UHGV virus genome: UHGV-0072542
Strand: one strand, 5' to 3'
Source of the DNA: a virus
Length of the DNA: 17,746 nucleotides
A program made the position numbers and the translations under genes. This document shows, one piece after another, positions 2,903-15,678 of this stretch. Each line of letters begins with the position of its first letter. The stretch's first letter is position 1. The notes under the pieces were generated by a model. The model worked only from the letters and a program-made list of their open reading frames with translations. It made no database searches and was not told the DNA's origin.

Positions 2903-3446
2903 CAGCACAGCTCCGCAAACATTCGCGGTCGTCCCAGAATGTCAGAGATGGCCCAGCTCACATCGCGCCACAAATCCGATGTCTGTATATCCAGTGCGTC
3001 CGCCCGGCGATCGCCCTTGTCCGTTGTGTCCGCATCGCGGTAACGCTCCAGAATCAGGGCACGTGTGGCGGTATAAACAGCATTGCGCCAGTGCCAGAGA
3101 TTGACGCTTTCTCCGTTAATTACGGGTGCCGGAACATCGGCCAGCGTCTGATGGCCCACCACCCGCTCGCCCGATTTGAAAGTGAATGGCCCGGCGTCTG
3201 ATGGCCGCCCGCCTGCTGTTCCTGCTGCCACGCTTCCAGTTCGCGGGTAACGTGAGCCACGGCCCCAGTGGCGGTATGCAGCAGGCGGGAGGTGGTCACG
3301 CGGCCCGGCAGTCGTACCGCCAGACGCAGCTCGCGCAGCACAATATCCGGCCAGAATGCACCTGCTGAAATGCGAGTGTCGCCATCATCGGTATCGGTGA
3401 TGTCGTCCTCTGCGGGTCCTGGTTCAGTTCTGGCAACCATACTCAT
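2902..3446 (-). pseudogene. L: head completion protein gpL, reading frame interrupted (N-terminal part in frame of 3120-3446, C-terminal part in frame of 2902-3231)
   Basis: N-part FWPDIVLRELRLAVRLP...LEAWQQEQQAGGHQT and C-part GHQTLADVPAPVINGESVNLWHW...ERYRDADTTDKGDRRADALD each align to recalled P2 gpL but lie in different frames. The junction coincides with a 13-bp direct repeat GCGTCTGATGGCC (3144-3156 and 3194-3206) spaced 50 bp apart. Removing one 50-bp period restores a continuous gpL-like ORF. Confidence 0.55.
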
Positions 3447-3461
3447 GGAGTTCACTCCTGA

Positions 3462-3533
3462 AAAAAAATCGGGCGGTGGGTGCGCGGTGTAAACGGTCAC
3501 GGAGTCAAACCGGAACACCGCGCACGCCGCCCG
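3462..3533 (-). terminator. putative intrinsic terminator between M and L (long GC-rich stem, then U8 on the minus-strand RNA)
   Basis: Inverted arms cgggcggtgggtgcgcggtg (3470-3489) and caccgcgcacgccgcccg (3516-3533) flank a 26-nt loop. On the minus strand they are followed by eight U (plus-strand AAAAAAAA at 3462-3469). Confidence 0.4.
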
Positions 3534-3549
3534 CTGACGGGGTCAGTCG

Positions 3550-4350
3550 TTAACCGCGCTTCGCCTTCTGCGACGCGGTGGTTTTTCGTGTTGCAGGCTT
3601 CTGCGTTGTCTTTTTACTTTTGCTGCTTTCGTCCTGCGTCTGCTGTGCGCTGGCGTCTTCTGGTGCGGCTGCGGAATCGGCTTTTTTCAGGGCGCGGGAA
3701 AGGGTTGCAATCTCGCGTTTCACACCTGCGTTCGGGTTCAGGTGCATCGCTTCGCGCAGCAGCTTCAGTGATGAGGCCATGTTGTCTGCATCGGTCAGGC
3801 CACGACGGGCAAAGGCACACGCCTTGCATAATTTGGCGCGCACTTCGTCCGGCATGTCCTGGTTGGCGACAATTTCCCAAAGTGTGTCCAGTGGTTCGAT
3901 AAAGGCGGATAAATCCGCGTCGGCATCCGTCCCGGCCTGCGTCAGTACCGGGTTGCAGATTTCTTCGGTCAGTACCGTGGCAGCAGTACGGCCAAAGTTA
4001 TCCGGCATGATGAGGTTGTGACGGACCACATATGCACCAATACGCAGCGCCAGCGGAAGATCGCCGCAGTCAATCGCCCACACCATCAGCGTGGCAATTA
4101 CTTCGTCCTGTTGCCCGCCGTCAGTCTCCAGCGTTCCCTCAATCCAGCCGGAAAAGTCCGGCAACAACTCTTTTTTGATGGCGGCTTTCGCGCTTCTGGC
4201 CTGTACGCCCTTTAGCCTGGCCTGTGCCAGACGCAGACGATACAGCACCTCTTCATGCGCGGTACGCGCGGCGTGGTCCACACCTTCATTCGCCCGGCCT
4301 GCGCGCTGTGCCATCACGTTCTGCCAGTGTTGTTGTGCAGGAGTAATCAT
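3550..4350 (-). CDS. M: terminase small subunit (P2 gpM-like)
   Basis: 266 aa; its position after the capsid gene and its sequence character fit P2 gpM. ATG at 4350 with a GGAGAG SD. Confidence 0.8.
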   Translation of the reverse strand: MITPAQQHWQNVMAQRAGRANEGVDHAARTAHEEVLYRLRLAQARLKGVQARSAKAAIKKELLPDFSGWIEGTLETDGGQQDEVIATLMVWAIDCGDLPLALRIGAYVVRHNLIMPDNFGRTAATVLTEEICNPVLTQAGTDADADLSAFIEPLDTLWEIVANQDMPDEVRAKLCKACAFARRGLTDADNMASSLKLLREAMHLNPNAGVKREIATLSRALKKADSAAAPEDASAQQTQDESSKSKKTTQKPATRKTTASQKAKRG

Positions 4351-8214: not shown

Positions 8215-9260
8215 TGAGCAGAAAAAATAAAAAAGTGCGCATGAGTTCACGCATTGATCTCGCTGATGCGCTCAGGAAAGAATCATCGCTCAGTGCATTC
8301 ACATTTGATGGTCCTTATCGCCTGACCGGGCATGACCTGCTGGACAATATGTACTGTGCTGATAACGGGCGGTGGTATGAAACCCCGGTGGACTGGTACG
8401 GTCTGGCAAGAGCTGCCCGGCAAACGTCCTGGCATCAGTCTGCGCTTTACTTTAAGCGCAATGTATTACTCGGTTGCTACATCCCGCACCCGCTGCTTTC
8501 CCGGCAGGATTTCTCGGCGCTGGCGCTGGACTGGTTTGTGTTCGGTAACGCATTCCTTGAGCTTCGGAGCAATATGCTCGGCGAACCGCTTAAATTACGG
8601 CACGCCCTGGCGAAATACATGCGACGCGGAAGCGATCTTGAATCATGGTGGTATGTGCAGGATGGCAAGGACGCGTTTCAGTTTCGCCCTGACAAAGTGT
8701 GCCACCTGATGAATCCGGATATTAACCAGGAAATCTACGGCATGCCGGAATATCTTGGCGCATTACTCTCGGCCAGCCTTTCTCATTCGGCGGACATGTT
8801 CAGAAAACTGTACTACGACAACGGATCCCACGCCGGGTGCATCATCTACATCGGTGCAGCGCAGGTAAACCGCGAAAGCATGGACTCCCTGAAAGAAACG
8901 CTACAGGGTGCGCGTGGTGGTGGTGCGTTTAAAAACGTGCTCATTCATGCGCCCAACGGGGGCAAAGAAGGTGTGCAAATTTTGCCGTTCCAGCAGATCA
9001 CCGCAAAGGATGAGTTCATGAATGTTAAGGCGGCATCCCGTGATGATGTACTGGCTGCGCACCGCGTTCCGCCGCAACTGATGGGGGCGATGCCGGGCGA
9101 AAAAAGTGCGTTTGGTGATGTGGAGAAGGCCGCGCGGGTTTACGCAATTAACGAGCTGATGCCCGTCATGGAGGCCATGAAGCACATCAATGACTGGCTT
9201 GGCGAAGAGGTGATCCGCTTTAACCCTTACGCACTGTTAGACACCCAGCCCACATCCTGA
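8214..9260 (+). CDS. Q: portal protein (P2 gpQ-like)
   Basis: 348 aa; the start overlaps the terminase stop (TGATG). Size and position fit the P2 portal. Confidence 0.85.
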   Translation: MSRKNKKVRMSSRIDLADALRKESSLSAFTFDGPYRLTGHDLLDNMYCADNGRWYETPVDWYGLARAARQTSWHQSALYFKRNVLLGCYIPHPLLSRQDFSALALDWFVFGNAFLELRSNMLGEPLKLRHALAKYMRRGSDLESWWYVQDGKDAFQFRPDKVCHLMNPDINQEIYGMPEYLGALLSASLSHSADMFRKLYYDNGSHAGCIIYIGAAQVNRESMDSLKETLQGARGGGAFKNVLIHAPNGGKEGVQILPFQQITAKDEFMNVKAASRDDVLAAHRVPPQLMGAMPGEKSAFGDVEKAARVYAINELMPVMEAMKHINDWLGEEVIRFNPYALLDTQPTS

Positions 9261-9286
9261 CGCGCTTCGCTTGTCTGCTGCTTCGC

Positions 9287-9311
9287 CGGGGCATAAAAAA
9301 TTTATGCCCCG
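9287..9311 (+). terminator. hairpin downstream of portal gene (possible terminator; no clear U-tract)
   Basis: cggggcataaaaaatttatgccccg is a palindrome lying 27 nt after the Q stop. Confidence 0.3.
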
Positions 9312-9612
9312 ACTCTCCAGCTCCTGTATCAGTCAGATAATTTCACGACGCCTTCCAGTTTATCGCCACCATCGACGGTCAGGCTCTTACGCAATCCCAC
9401 CGCGTTGACTGCATGTTCTCGCCGCCTCAGTGCGATTTTGACGGCCTTACCTTTCACCCCATTAAATCAGAATCCCTCACGTATTTTTCACGCTCAGCGT
9501 GAGAAATACGGCCATTCTGTCGTGTCGCTGCGACATCGTTAAGGGAACGCTATTTACCCCCTGAAACGCGGGCTGTTCCCCCGTCACCTGCGCGCAGAAA
9601 AAACGCGTTTTT

Positions 9613-9711
9613 TTGTGCATGCACGGATCCTTGACGGATCCAGCCGCCATGCGGGCCGAAAGGGTAAAAAGTCGTTCAAAAAAATTGTGCAAATTTGTGC
9701 ACTATTGTGCA
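9613..9711. repeat. TTGTGCA direct repeats (three copies at 10-bp phasing, plus one upstream copy embedded in palindrome GTGCATGCAC)
   Basis: TTGTGCA occurs at 9685-9691, 9695-9701 and 9705-9711, and again at 9613-9619. The region is intergenic, between cos (expected nearby) and the cargo operon. Confidence 0.5.
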
Positions 9712-9718
9712 TTGAAAT

Positions 9719-9740
9719 AAACGCCCTGGAGGAGGGCGTT
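9719..9740 (-). terminator. intrinsic terminator at the end of the cargo operon (hairpin with T-rich flanks both sides)
   Basis: aacgccctggaggagggcgtt has an 8-bp stem and is flanked by T/A-rich runs. It lies immediately 3' of the stop at 9745-9747. Confidence 0.5.
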
Positions 9741-9744
9741 TTAC

Positions 9745-10152
9745 TTATCTTTTATAGCCTTGCCCCTTTCTGGCCAGCGCCCTGATGGCCGGGCGTGCCA
9801 ACACCATATTTTGGCAATGATGAATTGCCCGGCAAAATTCATCTCTACCCATTGGATGCTCAACTGGCAACGTTAAATACAGGTTCCATGCGTCGCCTAA
9901 AAGTTGGGCTATCTTTTGTTCTTCAGATGTCAGCAAGCAAGCGGTATCCGTAAAATAATCATACTTTTCATGTATGTTATTTAACGGTTTTGTCTGTAGT
10001 GCAGCCTGAGCTATACGGTATGCCTGAAGCATACTGGCGTCGTTGATATCCATTCCGAACGGAATTTCTGATGATTGTGACTCTGCATCTTCAAGCCTGG
10101 CAATTTCTTTACGTAAGAAGTACTTCAACTCTTGTTTCTGTTTTCTGTTCAT
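9745..10152 (-). CDS. hypothetical protein (135 aa), second gene of two-gene cargo cassette
   Basis: The ATG at 10150-10152 overlaps the upstream stop (ATGA). The gene is AT-richer than the flanking phage genes. No recognisable family; the product is [25 protein letters not shown]...[28 protein letters not shown]. Confidence 0.6.
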
Positions 10153-10481
10153 GCGTTTTTTTCCTTTTTGTCTGTCACTTCTTTCCTGATAATTTCATTG
10201 CACAAATCCACGCACTCATTGCAGATGTAAACAGACGGTCCGGCAATCACCTTTGTGACTTCGTACTGGGATTTATTGCAGAAACTGCAATAAACCGTCT
10301 TCTCGCCTGAAGTCCATGTTTTGCTGGTTTCGCCAGACATCAGTTGTTTGAGGTCTTTTTCACGACGAAGAACTATCTGGCCACATTCAGCTATTTTTTG
10401 GATGTTGACATTTTCTGCTTTCGCCAGCGCTTCCATCCGCTCAATCAGTCGCTGCGCTTTTTCTCTGTCAATGTGTTGCAT
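10149..10481 (-). CDS. small protein with C-terminal ClpX-type C4 zinc-binding domain (ZBD) and N-terminal helical region
   Basis: The C-terminus [40 protein letters not shown] is near-identical in pattern to the N-terminal zinc-binding domain of E. coli ClpX ([34 protein letters not shown], recalled). ATG at 10481 with an AAGGGGGA SD 5 nt upstream. Confidence 0.7.
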
Positions 10482-10544
10482 TGTGTCCCCCTTGTTTATG
10501 CTCCCGGGTTAAAGTCATCAGGGCGGATGCGCCCTGATGTTGTG

Positions 10545-10856
10545 TTATTCGGGAAATAACGCCCGGATATTTCCGGCCATCTGACTGGTTATCTGTGCGG
10601 CTGATACTGGCTGTGACGCGGGGCGTTCTGTCCTGGTTTGTGTCACTGATAACGCCTCATCATCAGCCCATGCAGCCAGTCGGTAAGCCTCTGCCGGATT
10701 CATTTTCAGTAGTGCCAGCCCGGCCAGAAAAGCCACGCGTTGACCACTTTTGCGGGCTTCTGGTGTAAGGCTGTCCAGCCAGGCGCATGCTTCGCCTTCG
10801 TTCTTGACGGCGGCGGGCTTCAGATAGAAACTTATCCGTCTGGTTGGTGTCGTCAT
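10545..10856 (-). CDS. parR: ParR-like centromere-binding protein (type II partition)
   Basis: RRISFYLKPAAVKNEGEACAWLDSLTPEARKSGQRVAFLAGLALL resembles the recalled R1 ParR N-terminus (RTIAFKLNPDVNQTDKIVCDTLDSIPQGERSRLNRAALTAGLALY). It lies 4 nt downstream of parM. Start taken at the internal ATG at 10856. Confidence 0.65.
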   Translation of the reverse strand: MTTPTRRISFYLKPAAVKNEGEACAWLDSLTPEARKSGQRVAFLAGLALLKMNPAEAYRLAAWADDEALSVTQTRTERPASQPVSAAQITSQMAGNIRALFPE

Positions 10857-10860
10857 TGGT

Positions 10861-11820
10861 TTACTCCTTGTCCATTGCGTACAGCCCATTAACCAGAGCA
10901 AACTGTGGCACCCCGTCCGCGATGAAGGTCGCATTAACTCCGCAGGCTTCGCGGATAGCGGGTGCCACAATCTCCGCCCCGCCACCGACAACCATCACCC
11001 GCCCGTAACCCGAAAAACCCGCCAGCGCGCGGATCACGCGTTGTTTCAGTGTTTCTTCCTTTTCACGAATAACCGCCATCAGGCTGGCGTAATGCGCGTC
11101 ATTGTGGATGTGCTGGCGCAGCCAGGCTTCATCATGGCGATGTTCGATAATGGTATTGGCGATGTGGTGACTGGTACGCATACCGTTAGTGGCCATCACC
11201 GACAGTACGGCATCGGCCATCAGGGAAACGCCTACGTGTGGATCGCAAAACACCTGGCTGATACCTGCCAGTTGTCCCTGAACCTTTGCCACATCCAGCG
11301 TGGTTCCGCCTAAATCCACAATCAGCAGGGATTCAAACGGACTCATGTCAGCCAGTGCTTTAAAACCAGCCGGAATGGATTCAGGCATAACCCGTACGTT
11401 ACGGATAGTGAATGCTTTTCCGTTCTGGTACGCCACCGGGCGCATGACGTTTGCTTTTTTGCGGTTGATGTTGGCCATGTCCGGCTGTGCGTTTGTGTCG
11501 AAATATTCGCTCAGTGGCAGGGTGACAACCACATCCACTTCCTGTGGTGTGATGCCTGATTTGACCAGCGCGTGATGAATGGCAATGACATTCACATCGC
11601 TGTACTGGTATTGCGTGTCGGTCGTCTGGACAAAGCGATCGCTGACTGGATCAAAACCATAGCGCACGCCATCAAGCATGTAGTTCGCGGGCTGCGTGCC
11701 ACCGAACGGCGCAGACCATTCCGACTTGAAGCTGTTCGGGCTGATGGCGTTGCGGCGTTCGCCGTTCTCAGTCCATGCCAGCTTGATGTTGGTGGAGCCG
11801 TCATCGATACAAATTTTCAT
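10861..11820 (-). CDS. parM: ParM/StbA-like actin-like segregation ATPase
   Basis: 319 aa. IDDGSTNIKLAW, ISPNSFK, YSDVNVIAIHHAL, IRNVRVMPESIPAG, LLIVDLGGTTLDV, VMVVGGGAEI and VNGLY match the recalled plasmid R1 ParM along its whole length. ATG at 11820 with an AAGGAAAA SD. Confidence 0.85.
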   Translation of the reverse strand: MKICIDDGSTNIKLAWTENGERRNAISPNSFKSEWSAPFGGTQPANYMLDGVRYGFDPVSDRFVQTTDTQYQYSDVNVIAIHHALVKSGITPQEVDVVVTLPLSEYFDTNAQPDMANINRKKANVMRPVAYQNGKAFTIRNVRVMPESIPAGFKALADMSPFESLLIVDLGGTTLDVAKVQGQLAGISQVFCDPHVGVSLMADAVLSVMATNGMRTSHHIANTIIEHRHDEAWLRQHIHNDAHYASLMAVIREKEETLKQRVIRALAGFSGYGRVMVVGGGAEIVAPAIREACGVNATFIADGVPQFALVNGLYAMDKE

Positions 11821-11850
11821 GTCGCTTTTCCTTATGTTGATTAATTAATC

Positions 11851-11962
11851 GTTTACGGGATTCTGAAATCCCGTTTTTGCCTGTTTTATGCGCGCTTCAT
11901 ATATCGCGGCGCGTTTTTTGCTCATTTACGGGATTTGTGAATCCCGTTTCTGTCTGTTTTTT
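11851..11962. repeat. two copies of a ~35-bp hairpin-containing repeat flanking the A stop / parM upstream region
   Basis: Copy 1 is tttacgggattCTGAaatcccgttttt (hairpin 11855-11874). Copy 2 is tttacgggattTGTGaatcccgtttct (hairpin 11928-11947). Both are followed by T-runs on the plus strand. Spacing is 73 bp, and copy 2 lies inside the 3' end of gene A. Confidence 0.5.
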
Positions 11963-14719
11963 GTTTCCACTGGTCAGGCCACCCCGCAGCAGGTCTGCTT
12001 TGCGGCGGGCGCGTTCAGTGGTTTCACTGATTCTCTGTGCGTGCTCTGCGTCGCGGATGGCGCGCAGCATGTCAGAAAGCACGGTAACGGGTGTTTTCAT
12101 GGTGTTCTGGTCCTGCTGAAGTGTGGATGCCAGGCGTGCGGCGGCTTCGGGGTCTGATGCCCCCAGCTGTTCCAGATAGCTGGCGACCGGGTTATGGCGG
12201 ATCTCCGTGCTGCTTACGCCGTGGTTACGGCTCAGGCGCTGCCAGAGCTGCGTGATCCGGCTGTCCGGTCGGGTATCCGGTTTGCGTACAATTTCAAATC
12301 CCTGCGGTGCAATGATGCTGCCGTCAACGTACAGGCTGCCTCCCCGTAACAGGTGCTGCATCTGCTGTTCACCGATATGCAGGCCGAGAGATTCGGCAGA
12401 TTCCCGCCATTCTTTAGCGAGTAATTCGTGGTTATCAGGCAAAGGCCGCGGCTGTTTGCGGCTCTGTGTCCAGCTCTGCATTTCATCACTGCTGTTTTTT
12501 GCCTGTTTGTCACGCAGCGAACGCATCAGCGCCCGGCGTTCGTGCCGTTTCAGTGAGCGCATCCATTCATTCACATCAATGCCGTCAGGAAGCTGCGGCC
12601 ATGGTGCTGGCCGTTCTTCCGGCTGTTCTGTCCCGTTGTTGTCCGTTTCCTGTACACGGGGACAGTTATTGCCACGAGTCCAAGGGGCGGCAGGGCCGCC
12701 CTGAAGGTCAAAACCATTTTCGCGGGCGCTGTCTTCAGCTTCCGGTTTGCGTCTTACCAGCTTCCAGTTATCCGGATGCGTGCACACACGGGAGGATTCC
12801 CCGATGAGTGGTGACCAGATCCCGTAAATCTGTACGCTCTGTTCGCCGTAATCGTTCAGCTCATCGGCGAGGTCGTAGGCGGTGCGAATCAGGTAGTCTT
12901 TGCGTGGAACAAGTACGCCGCCCTGTTTCTCTATGTAGGTGGCAAAACATCCGGCATCAGCGGCAGCGAGTACCGCATCCATTGCGTCATCCTTCAGCCG
13001 TTGCGGGCCTTCCGGGTTGCGTGCCATCTGGCTGGCAAGGCGGCGGAGTTCACGCCACACCTGACGGGAGGGGATGCCAAAGAACTGGAACTGGCGGACC
13101 CGGTGAAGGCGCGCCCAGCCAATGGCACGCTCCACGCTCTCGGCCATTGATTTTCCGGATTCATGGTCAACGCGTGGTTTGCCCGTTTTCGGGTCGATGC
13201 CATCCACGGCGCGGCTGTCCAGGTTTTTTCCGATGTAGGTCGCGATATAGCTGGTTGGTGTGCCTTTTGAGCCGTCGACGTACTCCGCCTCAAAGCGCGG
13301 GGTTATGTCATCGCCCAGCTCGTGGCGGTCTTCCTGAATGGCAATATCGCAGACGTGAGACACAATGGTGTCGATTTCGTCCGGATGCGCAAAAACCATC
13401 ATGTGCCAGTGCACGGTACCGTCATGGTGAGGCTCCGCTGTGCGGATGCCATACCAGCGCAGACCTTCACGGTTCAGTTTCTTGCGGACCGCTGCAAAAA
13501 ACGTGTTAACCAGGTAATCGCTGGAGTCGCGCATGGTGGCCCCGTTCCATTTGGGATTCGGATGACCGTTCTCTGTTGTTGCGTGGTATTTTGACGGGCA
13601 GGTGACAGTCAGAAACACCGCTCTGTCGCCACGGGCTTCGGCCAGAAGTTCCAGTCCCTTCATGGTGGCCATCATTTCTGCCTTACGGTGAACCGGGTTA
13701 CTTACTCCCGCGTAATACACTGTCTCGAGATCAATCGTGAACCCGTCTTCGTTTTCCAGCATGAAACTTTTCAGGAAATCGCGTGTTTTCTCGCGCTGTG
13801 CGCGAAACTCGCTTAACGCGTCCTGGCTCAGATAGGGCGATGTTTTTCTGGAAACCAGACAGGCGGCGCGGAGTTGTTCTTCTCTCCACTCGCAACGTAA
13901 CAGCCACAGTTTGTGTTTCCACCATTGCGCACAGGTCAGGCGAAGGATTGCGCCCGGCAGCAGCTCCGTGTCCGGTTCGTTCCTCCGGTCTTTGTCTGTT
14001 GTCAGTGCGTCATAATGCGGAGGCATGGCGTGCAGGTGTAACGCCATGCGGGCCAGCATCTGATACGCCTTCAGCGTTACATCCATGGTCAGCTCGCCAT
14101 CAGTCGCGCCAAAGCCATCGCAGAGTTTTTCGAAGGTGCTGCTGAACATCGCCGCCGTCATGGTGGCCAGCGTCTGTATCTGGTGCTTGTTGAGCTGCGG
14201 CAGGTAAAGCAAATCATCCAGGCGTTCGCGTCCGGCAAGGGAGCGATAACCCGGTGTCAGCCAGTGTCCGTCAGTGCGATCCAGACGTTCGAATATTTTG
14301 CGCAGGGTTCCGCGTGCATAGCGTTCCGCCTGCCAGCTCTTTTTGCCTTTCCGGCGATCGGCTTCCTGTTTTTTGCGCAGGAAGGAGAGGTGGCGAATAA
14401 GCGGATCGCGCAGATAGGACGGCAGCAGGCGCAGCGAGGCCATGGCTTCATCCACCGCGCCGCGTGCCTGTTTTCTGGCGTCTCCTGCCAGTGTGATGGT
14501 TTTGTCCTGTTTTTCCTGTGCGTCCAGGCTTTTATTAATCAGGTTGCCCAGCGGCGTGGCGGAGAACGCCGCATCAGCCATTTCCTGGCGGCGCTCGTTC
14601 TCTACCCGGTAGGCATCCAGCCAGGAGGAAAGCGCGGATTCAGGAGCGGGGATCCCCGTTCCTTCACGCCCCACTGCGTGGCGCGGTTGTTGCCAGTCCC
14701 TGATGTACTCTGCCGTCAT
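11897..14719 (-). CDS. A: replication initiator endonuclease (P2 gpA-like, rolling-circle HUH family)
   Basis: 940 aa with the HUH-type motif VHWHMMVFAHP and the paired-tyrosine motif TSYIATYIGKN. Its position downstream of the early operon fits P2/186 gene A. Confidence 0.85.
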   Translation of the reverse strand: MTAEYIRDWQQPRHAVGREGTGIPAPESALSSWLDAYRVENERRQEMADAAFSATPLGNLINKSLDAQEKQDKTITLAGDARKQARGAVDEAMASLRLLPSYLRDPLIRHLSFLRKKQEADRRKGKKSWQAERYARGTLRKIFERLDRTDGHWLTPGYRSLAGRERLDDLLYLPQLNKHQIQTLATMTAAMFSSTFEKLCDGFGATDGELTMDVTLKAYQMLARMALHLHAMPPHYDALTTDKDRRNEPDTELLPGAILRLTCAQWWKHKLWLLRCEWREEQLRAACLVSRKTSPYLSQDALSEFRAQREKTRDFLKSFMLENEDGFTIDLETVYYAGVSNPVHRKAEMMATMKGLELLAEARGDRAVFLTVTCPSKYHATTENGHPNPKWNGATMRDSSDYLVNTFFAAVRKKLNREGLRWYGIRTAEPHHDGTVHWHMMVFAHPDEIDTIVSHVCDIAIQEDRHELGDDITPRFEAEYVDGSKGTPTSYIATYIGKNLDSRAVDGIDPKTGKPRVDHESGKSMAESVERAIGWARLHRVRQFQFFGIPSRQVWRELRRLASQMARNPEGPQRLKDDAMDAVLAAADAGCFATYIEKQGGVLVPRKDYLIRTAYDLADELNDYGEQSVQIYGIWSPLIGESSRVCTHPDNWKLVRRKPEAEDSARENGFDLQGGPAAPWTRGNNCPRVQETDNNGTEQPEERPAPWPQLPDGIDVNEWMRSLKRHERRALMRSLRDKQAKNSSDEMQSWTQSRKQPRPLPDNHELLAKEWRESAESLGLHIGEQQMQHLLRGGSLYVDGSIIAPQGFEIVRKPDTRPDSRITQLWQRLSRNHGVSSTEIRHNPVASYLEQLGASDPEAAARLASTLQQDQNTMKTPVTVLSDMLRAIRDAEHAQRISETTERARRKADLLRGGLTSGNKKQTETGFTNPVNEQKTRRDI

Positions 14720-14725
14720 AGTGAT

Positions 14726-15091
14726 TTACTTCGTCATGCCATTCAGGGTGTCGCGGCAGACTGTAGCCAGCCGCTGAATTTCCAGCACGGTGTCTTCTGT
14801 GTCGGCATGGCGATGTGTGATGCGGATGCTGTCGGCAATCACATCGACGATTGCAGAGGATGGGCGCTGGTAAATGCCAATAACGGACGGGGTGCCACCT
14901 TCAATGCGGTAAAGCCTGTAATTTCCCTCGTGGCTGTCAATCATGTAGCGACCATCAATAACAATCTTTCCGTCAGCGAGCTGCGGTACAGGCAGGGATT
15001 TCAGGTACATGTCATAACGTTCACGCACGCGAACGGCAAGATCACGCTCTGTGTTGAGCAGGTATTCAAGAAAGTCGTTGGCGAGAATCAT
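14726..15091 (-). CDS. hypothetical early-operon protein (121 aa)
   Basis: ATG at 15091 with an AAGAGGA SD; the gene ends 6 nt before gene A. No family recognised. Confidence 0.55.
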   Translation of the reverse strand: MILANDFLEYLLNTERDLAVRVRERYDMYLKSLPVPQLADGKIVIDGRYMIDSHEGNYRLYRIEGGTPSVIGIYQRPSSAIVDVIADSIRITHRHADTEDTVLEIQRLATVCRDTLNGMTK

Positions 15092-15232
15092 TGCGGCAAT
15101 CCTCTTGTTACAGATGTGCGAAGGCCTCCCGCCACAAGGTGCAGGAAAGGCCCGGAACAGGAATTAATGGAGTTTGTTTTGCTGCCGGATGAGCTGCTGA
15201 AGCCCGACGTGGTTTCCGGCAGTTGGAGGTGC

Positions 15233-15478
15233 TCATGCTCTGATTTCCCTCAGTAGCTGGTTGAACATCTGGGTTAGTGGGTTGCTACACCCAAACGGCA
15301 TCGGGTTTACCTGATAAGAAAAGCGACCGCCTGTTTTGCGCTCTTTTCTTATGACTGAACCGCTGCGCCAGAGACGGCGTAGCTCCGCATTAATGGTTGT
15401 GGTTGGTGTATTCAGTGCTGCGGCGATTTCTCCACCGCTACAACCCGGATTGGCAGCGATGTAGTCCAGAATGGTCAT
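15233..15478 (-). CDS. hypothetical early-operon protein (81 aa)
   Basis: The ATG at 15476-15478 overlaps the upstream stop (ATGA). No family recognised. Confidence 0.5.
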   Translation of the reverse strand: MTILDYIAANPGCSGGEIAAALNTPTTTINAELRRLWRSGSVIRKERKTGGRFSYQVNPMPFGCSNPLTQMFNQLLREIRA

Positions 15479-15678
15479 CTGCGTGACTCCTGTACCTGTC
15501 TGATAAGATTCACCTGCACCACGTTGGTGGCGCAGAAGTAAGTGCCGTCAGTGAGATAGATGTGATGTGCATCCTTTTCTGAACGGTGTTTGTCGATTGT
15601 GGTAATCAGGCGTTCGTCAACTTCGTATTCACGTCCTCTGGAGGTGAAACGAACGACAGGAAAATGCTTAATTGCCAT
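15475..15678 (-). CDS. hypothetical early-operon protein (67 aa)
   Basis: The internal ATG at 15678 is preceded by an AAGGAGG SD 5 nt upstream. The ORF-track start at 15729 is a GTG with no SD. Confidence 0.5.
   Translation of the reverse strand: MAIKHFPVVRFTSRGREYEVDERLITTIDKHRSEKDAHHIYLTDGTYFCATNVVQVNLIRQVQESRR

Follow-up and report, generated by a model that had tools for sequence, protein, structure and literature searches.

Ribbon-helix-helix proteins read bases with their N-terminal strand, as established for the pB171 and pSK41 ParR structures; in pSK41, the unit read is a 20-bp repeat bound by a dimer-of-dimers of ribbon-helix-helix ParR, and parC is built from contiguous tandem repeats. 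Among phages, a parMRC locus is found in E. coli phage D6, which is kept as a plasmid prophage. The paradigm for type II centromeres is parC of R1, in which two sets of five direct 11-bp iterons flank a 39-bp core containing the autoregulated par promoter (PMC2241845). A type II partition locus may also be carried by an element that is normally chromosomal; such is srpMRC of the SXT/R391 ICEs, which acts on the excised circular form and whose SrpR has no detectable homology to ParR (PMC4489591). Finally, the AlpA/AlpC/alpS system of the Corynebacterium prophage CGP3 combines an actin-like filament and a DNA-binding adaptor with sites in the promoter of its own operon, and the role proposed for it, once the prophage is induced, is in the movement and replication of viral DNA (PMC5539076, PMC4446434). 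For P2-like prophages, the searchable literature yielded no description of a par cis site or of a role of ParMR. We describe here two repeats that probably serve a phage ParMR system as a parC-like centromere and may in addition be its operator.

The window, i.e., the whole stretch of 17,746 nt analysed here (virus genome UHGV-0072542), is a P88-like (P2-family) prophage with gpA, parM, and parR in this order on the minus strand (Table 1). Over positions 10800-12300, it shares 96-99% identity with Escherichia phage P88 and further members of Xuanwuvirus (P2-like Peduoviridae), P2-type capsid, terminase, and portal genes are found in its left part, and accessory genes follow parR on the minus strand. 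One of the ORFs downstream of parR (110 aa, 10149-10481, minus) contains a ClpX-type C4 zinc finger (PF06689, 6.9e-18); its annotation in P88, “carboxylate--amine ligase”, is inconsistent. The gpA protein is 940 aa long in the window versus 761 aa in P2, the alignment with P2 gpA stops near residue 800, and the C-terminal 267 aa (window 11897-12700) find matches in the phage collection in P88-like phages only.

Table 1. Coordinates of the features discussed in the text (window numbering).
Feature	Position	Strand	Remarks
Gene A (gpA-type replication endonuclease, 940 aa)	14719-11897	minus	PF05840
Last 21 codons of gene A	11900..11962	minus	encoded by the par upstream block, not by the body of A
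Distal site, ACGGGATT-tgtg-AATCCCGT, 20-bp palindrome	11928..11947		core GGG-N10-CCC 11930-11945; within repeat 11922-11963
53-nt spacer between palindromes	11875..11927	minus	A-rich on the coding strand; contains the A stop codon
Gene A stop codon	11899-11897	minus	
Proximal site, ACGGGATT-ctga-AATCCCGT, 20-bp palindrome	11855..11874		core 11857-11872; within repeat 11849-11890
parM leader	11821..11854	minus	ATTAATCAA at 11845-11837; Shine-Dalgarno AAGGA at 11833-11829
parM, actin-like segregation ATPase, 319 aa	10861..11820, ATG at 11820	minus	PF06406 (6.9e-82), PF21523 (1.3e-68)
parR, StbB-type adaptor, 103 aa	10545..10856	minus	PF10784 (3.9e-24)

A sequence-only reading of this DNA had noticed two near-identical elements 73 bp apart, one upstream of parM and the other in the last codons of A. 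This pair is real: the repeat finder detects a 42-nt direct repeat present in two copies (11849-11890 and 11922-11963), 81% identical, whose starts are 73 bp apart. Each copy includes a perfect palindrome, ACGGGATT-n4-AATCCCGT, with 8-bp arms and a 4-nt centre; the paired stem described earlier holds for these 8 bp, whereas the flanking T residues quoted with it do not pair. Given the position of the A stop codon, the distal copy falls within the last 21 codons of A (...KKQTETGFTNPVNEQKTRRDI*), and the proximal copy is inside the 76-bp gap preceding the ATG of parM; in the direction of the coding (minus) strand, the sites start 127 nt (distal) and 54 nt (proximal) upstream of this ATG. When ACGGGATTNNNNAATCCCGT was searched with at most three mismatches, exactly two matches were found in the 17.7-kb window, while shuffled sequences gave 0.07 on average and none of 200 reached two. 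The spacer harbours a variable GC-rich mini-palindrome at about 11889-11913 and no GGG/CCC half-sites. Between the proximal site and the Shine-Dalgarno, the minus-strand 9-mer ATTAATCAA is kept in the P88, Plesiomonas, and Hafnia lineages, and is a candidate for a weak -10 element, half an IHF site, or a recombination junction.

The locus has what is expected of a type II parC, namely a cis site made of repeated units upstream of parM-parR, with a ParR-family adaptor (PF10784) and an actin-like ParM. As in R1/R100, the site lies directly upstream of homologous parM-parR genes and comprises two groups of repeated elements with a spacer, both regions being A-rich with CCC/GGG triplets and extending over comparable lengths (a footprint of 159 bp for R1 parC versus about 110-140 bp in the window). 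The R1-type architecture itself, two sets of five 11-bp iterons and a promoter core, was not found in the window: instead of ten iterons, there are only two elements, each a dyad-symmetric GGG-N10-CCC, 72-73 bp apart, with no consensus promoter detected; the distal one overlaps the coding end of the upstream gene, and the carrier is an integrating P2-like phage, not a plasmid. R1-like iterons had been considered, as five distal 11-mers seem by eye to end in A-runs, and were dropped, the A periodicity being weak and the autocorrelation of coding-strand A residues giving no clear 10-11-bp period. The 20-bp palindromes would fit the binding unit of pSK41, but they form two isolated units seven helical turns apart, and the ParR families differ. 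With srpMRC, the locus shares being a type II partition system on a normally chromosomal element; in contrast, the window ParR is a clear member of PF10784, the repeats differ in sequence, number, and spacing, and SXT/R391 elements are conjugative, not phages. The proteins of the CGP3 system belong to families unrelated to ParR/ParM, its alpS is a short TTAAnnG motif in many copies, and both host and phage type are different. The only further ParM that the phage collection yielded is that of D6 (48% identical), in which repeats likewise precede parM and the ParR is again of the PF10784 type; the D6 repeats, however, are clustered and short, of a TCTCA type as read by eye, the beta-strand of its ParR is RKKVMIYL, and D6 is a plasmid where the P88 group is integrated.

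Regarding expression, the consensus scan found no sigma-70 promoter between or beside the sites in any of the three lineages compared below, and inspection by hand gave hexamers that matched at 2-4 of 6 positions only. This leaves the operator half of the R1 model unsupported; par may be co-transcribed with A.

Both sites are present in all 86 P88-type loci at a fixed distance from the ATG, and their spacing is 73 bp in 84 loci, 72 bp in one, and 74 bp in another. Among the 68 unique P88-type sequences, the central GG/CC bases of the distal site are invariant and the parM leader, including ATTAATCAA, is nearly so, while the sites often carry one-sided changes (A to G in 22/68, CCC to CCT in 15/68, T to C in 21/68); the proximal site reads CCT instead of CCC in 21 of the 86 loci, with no compensating change. 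The average diversity of the repeat block is about that of synonymous sites (pi of 0.055 versus 0.056). Over the 21 codons only that make up the A tail, diversity is higher at codon position 1 (0.067) than at position 3 (0.040), which is atypical for a segment constrained by its protein.

More divergent lineages were obtained by a ParM protein search followed by contig look-ups. Other P2-like phages, from Plesiomonas, Hafnia, Serratia, and Enterobacter, have gpA, parM, parR, ogr, and portal in the same order; their ParM is 63% identical to that of the window in Plesiomonas shigelloides (L089), 62% in Hafnia (L090, with variants L104 and L105), and 54-58% in Serratia and Enterobacter (L094, L097, L095, L100). 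L089 and L090 each possess exactly two GGG-N10-CCC elements at the 5' end of the par operon, with parR after parM as in the window. Relative to the ATG, the cores are located at -131/-59 in L089 and -128/-55 in L090, compared with -125/-52 in P88, i.e., with spacings of 72, 73, and 73 bp, respectively, with the distal element and the end of the upstream ORF overlapping there too. All 24 G/C core positions of these four sites match the GGG/CCC defined in P88 (36/36 over the six sites), giving the consensus GGGA-N6-AA-N-CCC for the three lineages. The flanks and the spacer are 7-48% identical between lineages; the spacer between cores in particular keeps its length (56-57 nt) and is only 43-48% identical in sequence. 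Elsewhere in these loci of 7-18 kb, GGG-N10-CCC has 0-4 further matches per locus, and no other pair is 70-75 bp apart.

The exact two-site architecture is represented by three deep lineages only, which share their ancestry. Intermediate relatives were sought in species-representative genomes and in IMG/VR, which returned 3 and 249 loci, respectively, all near-identical, while searches with the L089 and L090 ParM gave one and zero viral contigs. Plasmid ParMs are at most 52% identical, except for six records of the plasmid collection, at least 95% identical, that carry P88-like prophage sequence. L101, whose ParR is 41% identical, was discarded as a divergent lineage, being a P88-type locus with a frameshifted parR. 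In Serratia and Enterobacter, one long imperfect inverted repeat lies upstream of parM in place of the two sites (L094 3880-3945; L095 3883-3950; L100 1384-1449), with arms of 14-32 nt (GGGAAC...GAAAAAT / ATTTTTC...GTTCCC); the mini-palindrome at its centre has undergone a compensatory change, being GCCGC/GCGGC in L094 and GCCAC/GTGGC in L097.

A direct repeat could of course be a relic without function, left by a 73-bp tandem duplication of the A 3' end or, as a recombination scar, by the insertion of par. The repeat extends over 42 nt, past the palindrome, the proximal copy translates (as read from the sequence) into a similar peptide followed by a stop, mosaic junctions occur at both edges of the block, and diversity is at the level of synonymous sites, all of which would suit a relic. 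A neutral relic would not keep its core G/C bases, its 10-nt gap, and its 72-73-bp spacing while ParM has drifted to 62-63% identity and the flanks are essentially randomised, nor would it show a fixed spacing in 84 of 86 loci; we regard a relic as highly improbable.

The hairpins themselves deserve closer scrutiny. Folded as RNA, they reach about -10 to -11 kcal/mol on either strand, and a T-rich tail follows each of them on the + strand, so that the consensus scan calls both terminator-like. They could be intrinsic terminators of the + strand, stopping antisense read-through from the late P-Q operon or from morons into the 3' end of the early operon, and their 8-bp stems with four G-C pairs and T-rich tails agree with this, as does an excess of terminator-like sites in 9000-15500 (17 versus 7.8 expected, 13 of the 17 on the + strand). 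The earlier remark that terminators would face the wrong way is nevertheless correct: they would act on the + strand, all neighbouring genes are on the minus strand, no + strand gene lies upstream, and the nearest ones end at 9260, with two stronger + strand terminator-like hairpins already present at 9719-9741 and 10516-10539. Moreover, the proximal-site changes found in 22 and 15 of the 68 unique P88-type sequences create A-C mismatches on the + strand. In Plesiomonas and Hafnia, stems and T-runs are missing, and yet the GGG/CCC pair and its spacing persist; no terminator was called at any L089 or L090 site. A stem with a U-tract is found on the + strand only, and neither a 3'-end location nor upkeep in relatives goes with it, which makes terminators very unlikely. 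As a separate observation, the 13 + strand terminator-like hairpins of the 9000-15500 region are antisense to genes, and there is a 10-bp stem immediately past the parR stop.

On the other strand, hairpins in the sense A-parM mRNA might serve in its processing or stability, or in translation coupling or attenuation between A and parM. The sense strand does fold well (z = -2.3 and -4.6), and the proximal-site changes keep G-U pairs in the sense RNA; Rfam has no match for the hairpins. Against such a role, there is no compensatory double change in the stems among the 68 unique P88-type sequences; the common distal-site change (21/68) breaks a sense-strand pair, and stable hairpins are missing at three of the four sites of the distant lineages. 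Indeed, the inner 10 nt of the L089 and L090 sites are not palindromic, and on the terminator-facing strand three of these four sites do not surpass shuffled sequences in folding (z of about -0.2 to -1; -0.3 to -2.6 for the same three on the coding strand); the exception is the L089 proximal site, which owes a better fold to an outer GC palindrome. We consider a sense-RNA function very improbable. Both the terminator and the RNA-hairpin readings were, thus, set aside, because folding of both strands in three lineages shows the hairpins to be lineage-specific and because compensatory changes are missing.

Stems and T-runs have been lost while half-sites, gap, and spacing were kept, from which we infer that selection held two inverted half-sites, the gap between them, and a spacing of seven turns; judged from sequence comparison, this is the signature of a site for a symmetric DNA-binding protein. 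Only the P88 lineage has the perfect palindrome, the hairpin potential, and the + strand T-runs, and the simplest explanation is that these are by-products of a symmetric site for protein binding with A-rich flanks in front of it.

The location of the distal repeat inside A had also led the sequence-only reading to suggest a part of the gpA nicking origin, the P2 ori being inside the 3' part of A. This suggestion did not survive a comparison with the mapped nick site of P2 (29892), which is annotated 427 bp before the A stop. A homologue of the nick site, (C/T)CT(T/C/A)GGA-N9-CAATAACTGT, was found in each of the ten gpA genes compared, 312-774 bp ahead of the stop; its form in the window is CCCCTTGGAC...GGCAATAACTGT, at about 12657-12702, i.e., outside 11851-11962 and some 750 bp from the repeats, for which reason the origin reading was rejected. 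In addition, gpA phages without par lack the repeats, and an origin function of the repeats is hardly credible. The probable origin of replication, as predicted from this homology, is GCCGCCCCTTGGACTCGTGGCAATAACTGT within about 12657-12702 (minus), with the equivalent of the nick near 12681.

Several rearranged loci indicate to which neighbour the sites belong. In L047 (IMGVR_UViG_2547132279_000014), gpA is 871 aa long and diverges from residue about 737 onwards, and it is a different, 155-aa ORF located after A (3457-3924) that enters the distal site and ends with the 21-residue tail of the window gpA (...EKQTKTGFTNPVNEQKTRSDI*). In L095, a methylase gene and a small ORF are found between A and par. 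In the Hafnia variant L105, the pair of sites stands at the head of a parC-orf93-parM-parR operon, and the leader with ATTAATCAA is duplicated, with one copy on each side of the inserted ORF. Conversely, no GGG-N10-CCC was found within 200 bp of the A stop in P2 and in the Klebsiella phages ST15-OXA48phi14.1 and 4LV2017, which have gpA without par. A counter-case is L102 (E. coli CUVET19-1704 chromosome, 3380-3640), where an ead/Ea22-like gene lying directly after the A stop has taken the place of parM, parR, and the proximal site, with a junction at about window position 11892, and an orphan distal site stays inside A, which we read as a secondary loss of par. On this comparative evidence, the sites are linked to par rather than to gpA, and a part of the par regulatory DNA at the same time encodes the C-terminus of the upstream gene product, whichever that is.

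The obvious candidate to bind both sites would be ParR. The window ParM matches the R1 ParM structure 1MWK with E=1.6e-92; a phmmer search of the PDB with ParR alone found nothing, and the ParR family profile matches the pB171 ParR structure 2JD3 at 1.7e-15, so that, by homology, ParR should be a ribbon-helix-helix protein. Among 51 ParR variants, there is hardly any change in the strand MTTPTRRISFYLKP or in the C-terminal tail NI(R/Q)ALFPE; two classes of helices can be distinguished, and the linker is hypervariable. In the P88 lineage, the helix class of ParR does not correlate with the repeat haplotype, which is consistent with an invariant reading strand. The ParRs of P88, Plesiomonas, and Hafnia, with TRR(I/V)SFYL, go with GGG-N10-CCC pairs; those of Serratia and Enterobacter, with NRKISFYL, go with the GGGAAC...GTTCCC inverted repeat; RKKVMIYL of D6 goes with TCTCA iterons, and RRTIAFKL of R100 with A-rich ...CCC iterons. 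This co-variation between strand and repeat type is a qualitative match, over too few independent lineages for statistics. Separately, ParR varies widely among P88-like prophages (10545-10856, especially below about 10800), with 80 or more clusters at 50-96% identity and a nucleotide diversity of 0.17-0.33, while the adjacent ParM is 98-99% identical.

The binder might also be another protein, such as gpA, Cox, Ogr, a repressor, or a host factor such as IHF, regulating expression at the A/par junction. The signature of symmetric and spaced sites tells that some protein binds and is silent on which one; the distal site survives in a prophage without par (L102); and the 9-mer ATTAATCAA beside the proximal site contains WATCAA, which we take to be the core of the IHF consensus WATCAANNNNTTR. 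However, only this WATCAA half of the consensus is present, the pair is absent from gpA phages without par and stays with par across upstream changes, and the sequence type of the sites changes along with the ParR beta-strand. A protein other than ParR is, thus, unlikely.

That the repeats are ParR-binding centromere sites had been put forward in the sequence-only reading, and this prediction is strengthened on three grounds: GGG-N10-CCC pairs 72-73 bp apart are found at the 5' end of par in three diverged P2-like lineages; the pair follows par despite changes of the upstream gene and is absent from gpA phages without par; and it occurs with one type of ParR DNA-reading strand. In the mechanism that we envisage, ParR dimers would read the inverted half-sites (C/T)GGG(A/T)... 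and ...CCC(G/A) of each 16-20-bp element by means of their N-terminal beta-ribbon (TRRISFYLK), probably as a dimer-of-dimers on each element. As 73 bp amounts to about seven helical turns, the two ParR assemblies would be found on one side of the double helix and make up a single partition complex. By analogy with R1, the C-terminal tail of ParR (NIRALFPE) would couple this complex to the ends of ParM filaments, and the filaments would drive circular phage genomes away from each other.

The par module with its sites is widespread, being found in 1308 of 5426 complete E. coli genomes (24%), including O157:H7 EDL933, in up to three copies per genome. Since 1454 of the 1456 E. coli copies are chromosomal and two are on plasmids, a classic role in plasmid maintenance is not evident; speculatively, with almost all copies integrated, its target would be the non-integrated circle that follows infection or induction. 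NZ_CP148288.1 (L103), recorded as a circular “plasmid” of 34,461 bp, is in fact a complete P88-like genome with an integrase.

A tentative and rather doubtful extension is that the two-site centromere and ParMR are used only in the transient circular phase following infection or induction, spacing or segregating the replicating genomes or carrying unintegrated circles to daughter cells, as proposed for CGP3 AlpAC and SXT srpMRC; in that case, the hypervariable middle of ParR, flanked by an invariant strand and an invariant tail, would result from diversifying selection between co-resident or competing prophages with parC and ParM in common.

For annotation, caution is advised: the hairpins should not be labelled as terminators or as an origin. 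We propose as new what is, from comparative sequence evidence, probably a minimal dyad-symmetric type II centromere, differing from the R1 paradigm. With this likely centromere narrowed to two 20-bp elements, a widespread and unstudied prophage partition system becomes directly testable.
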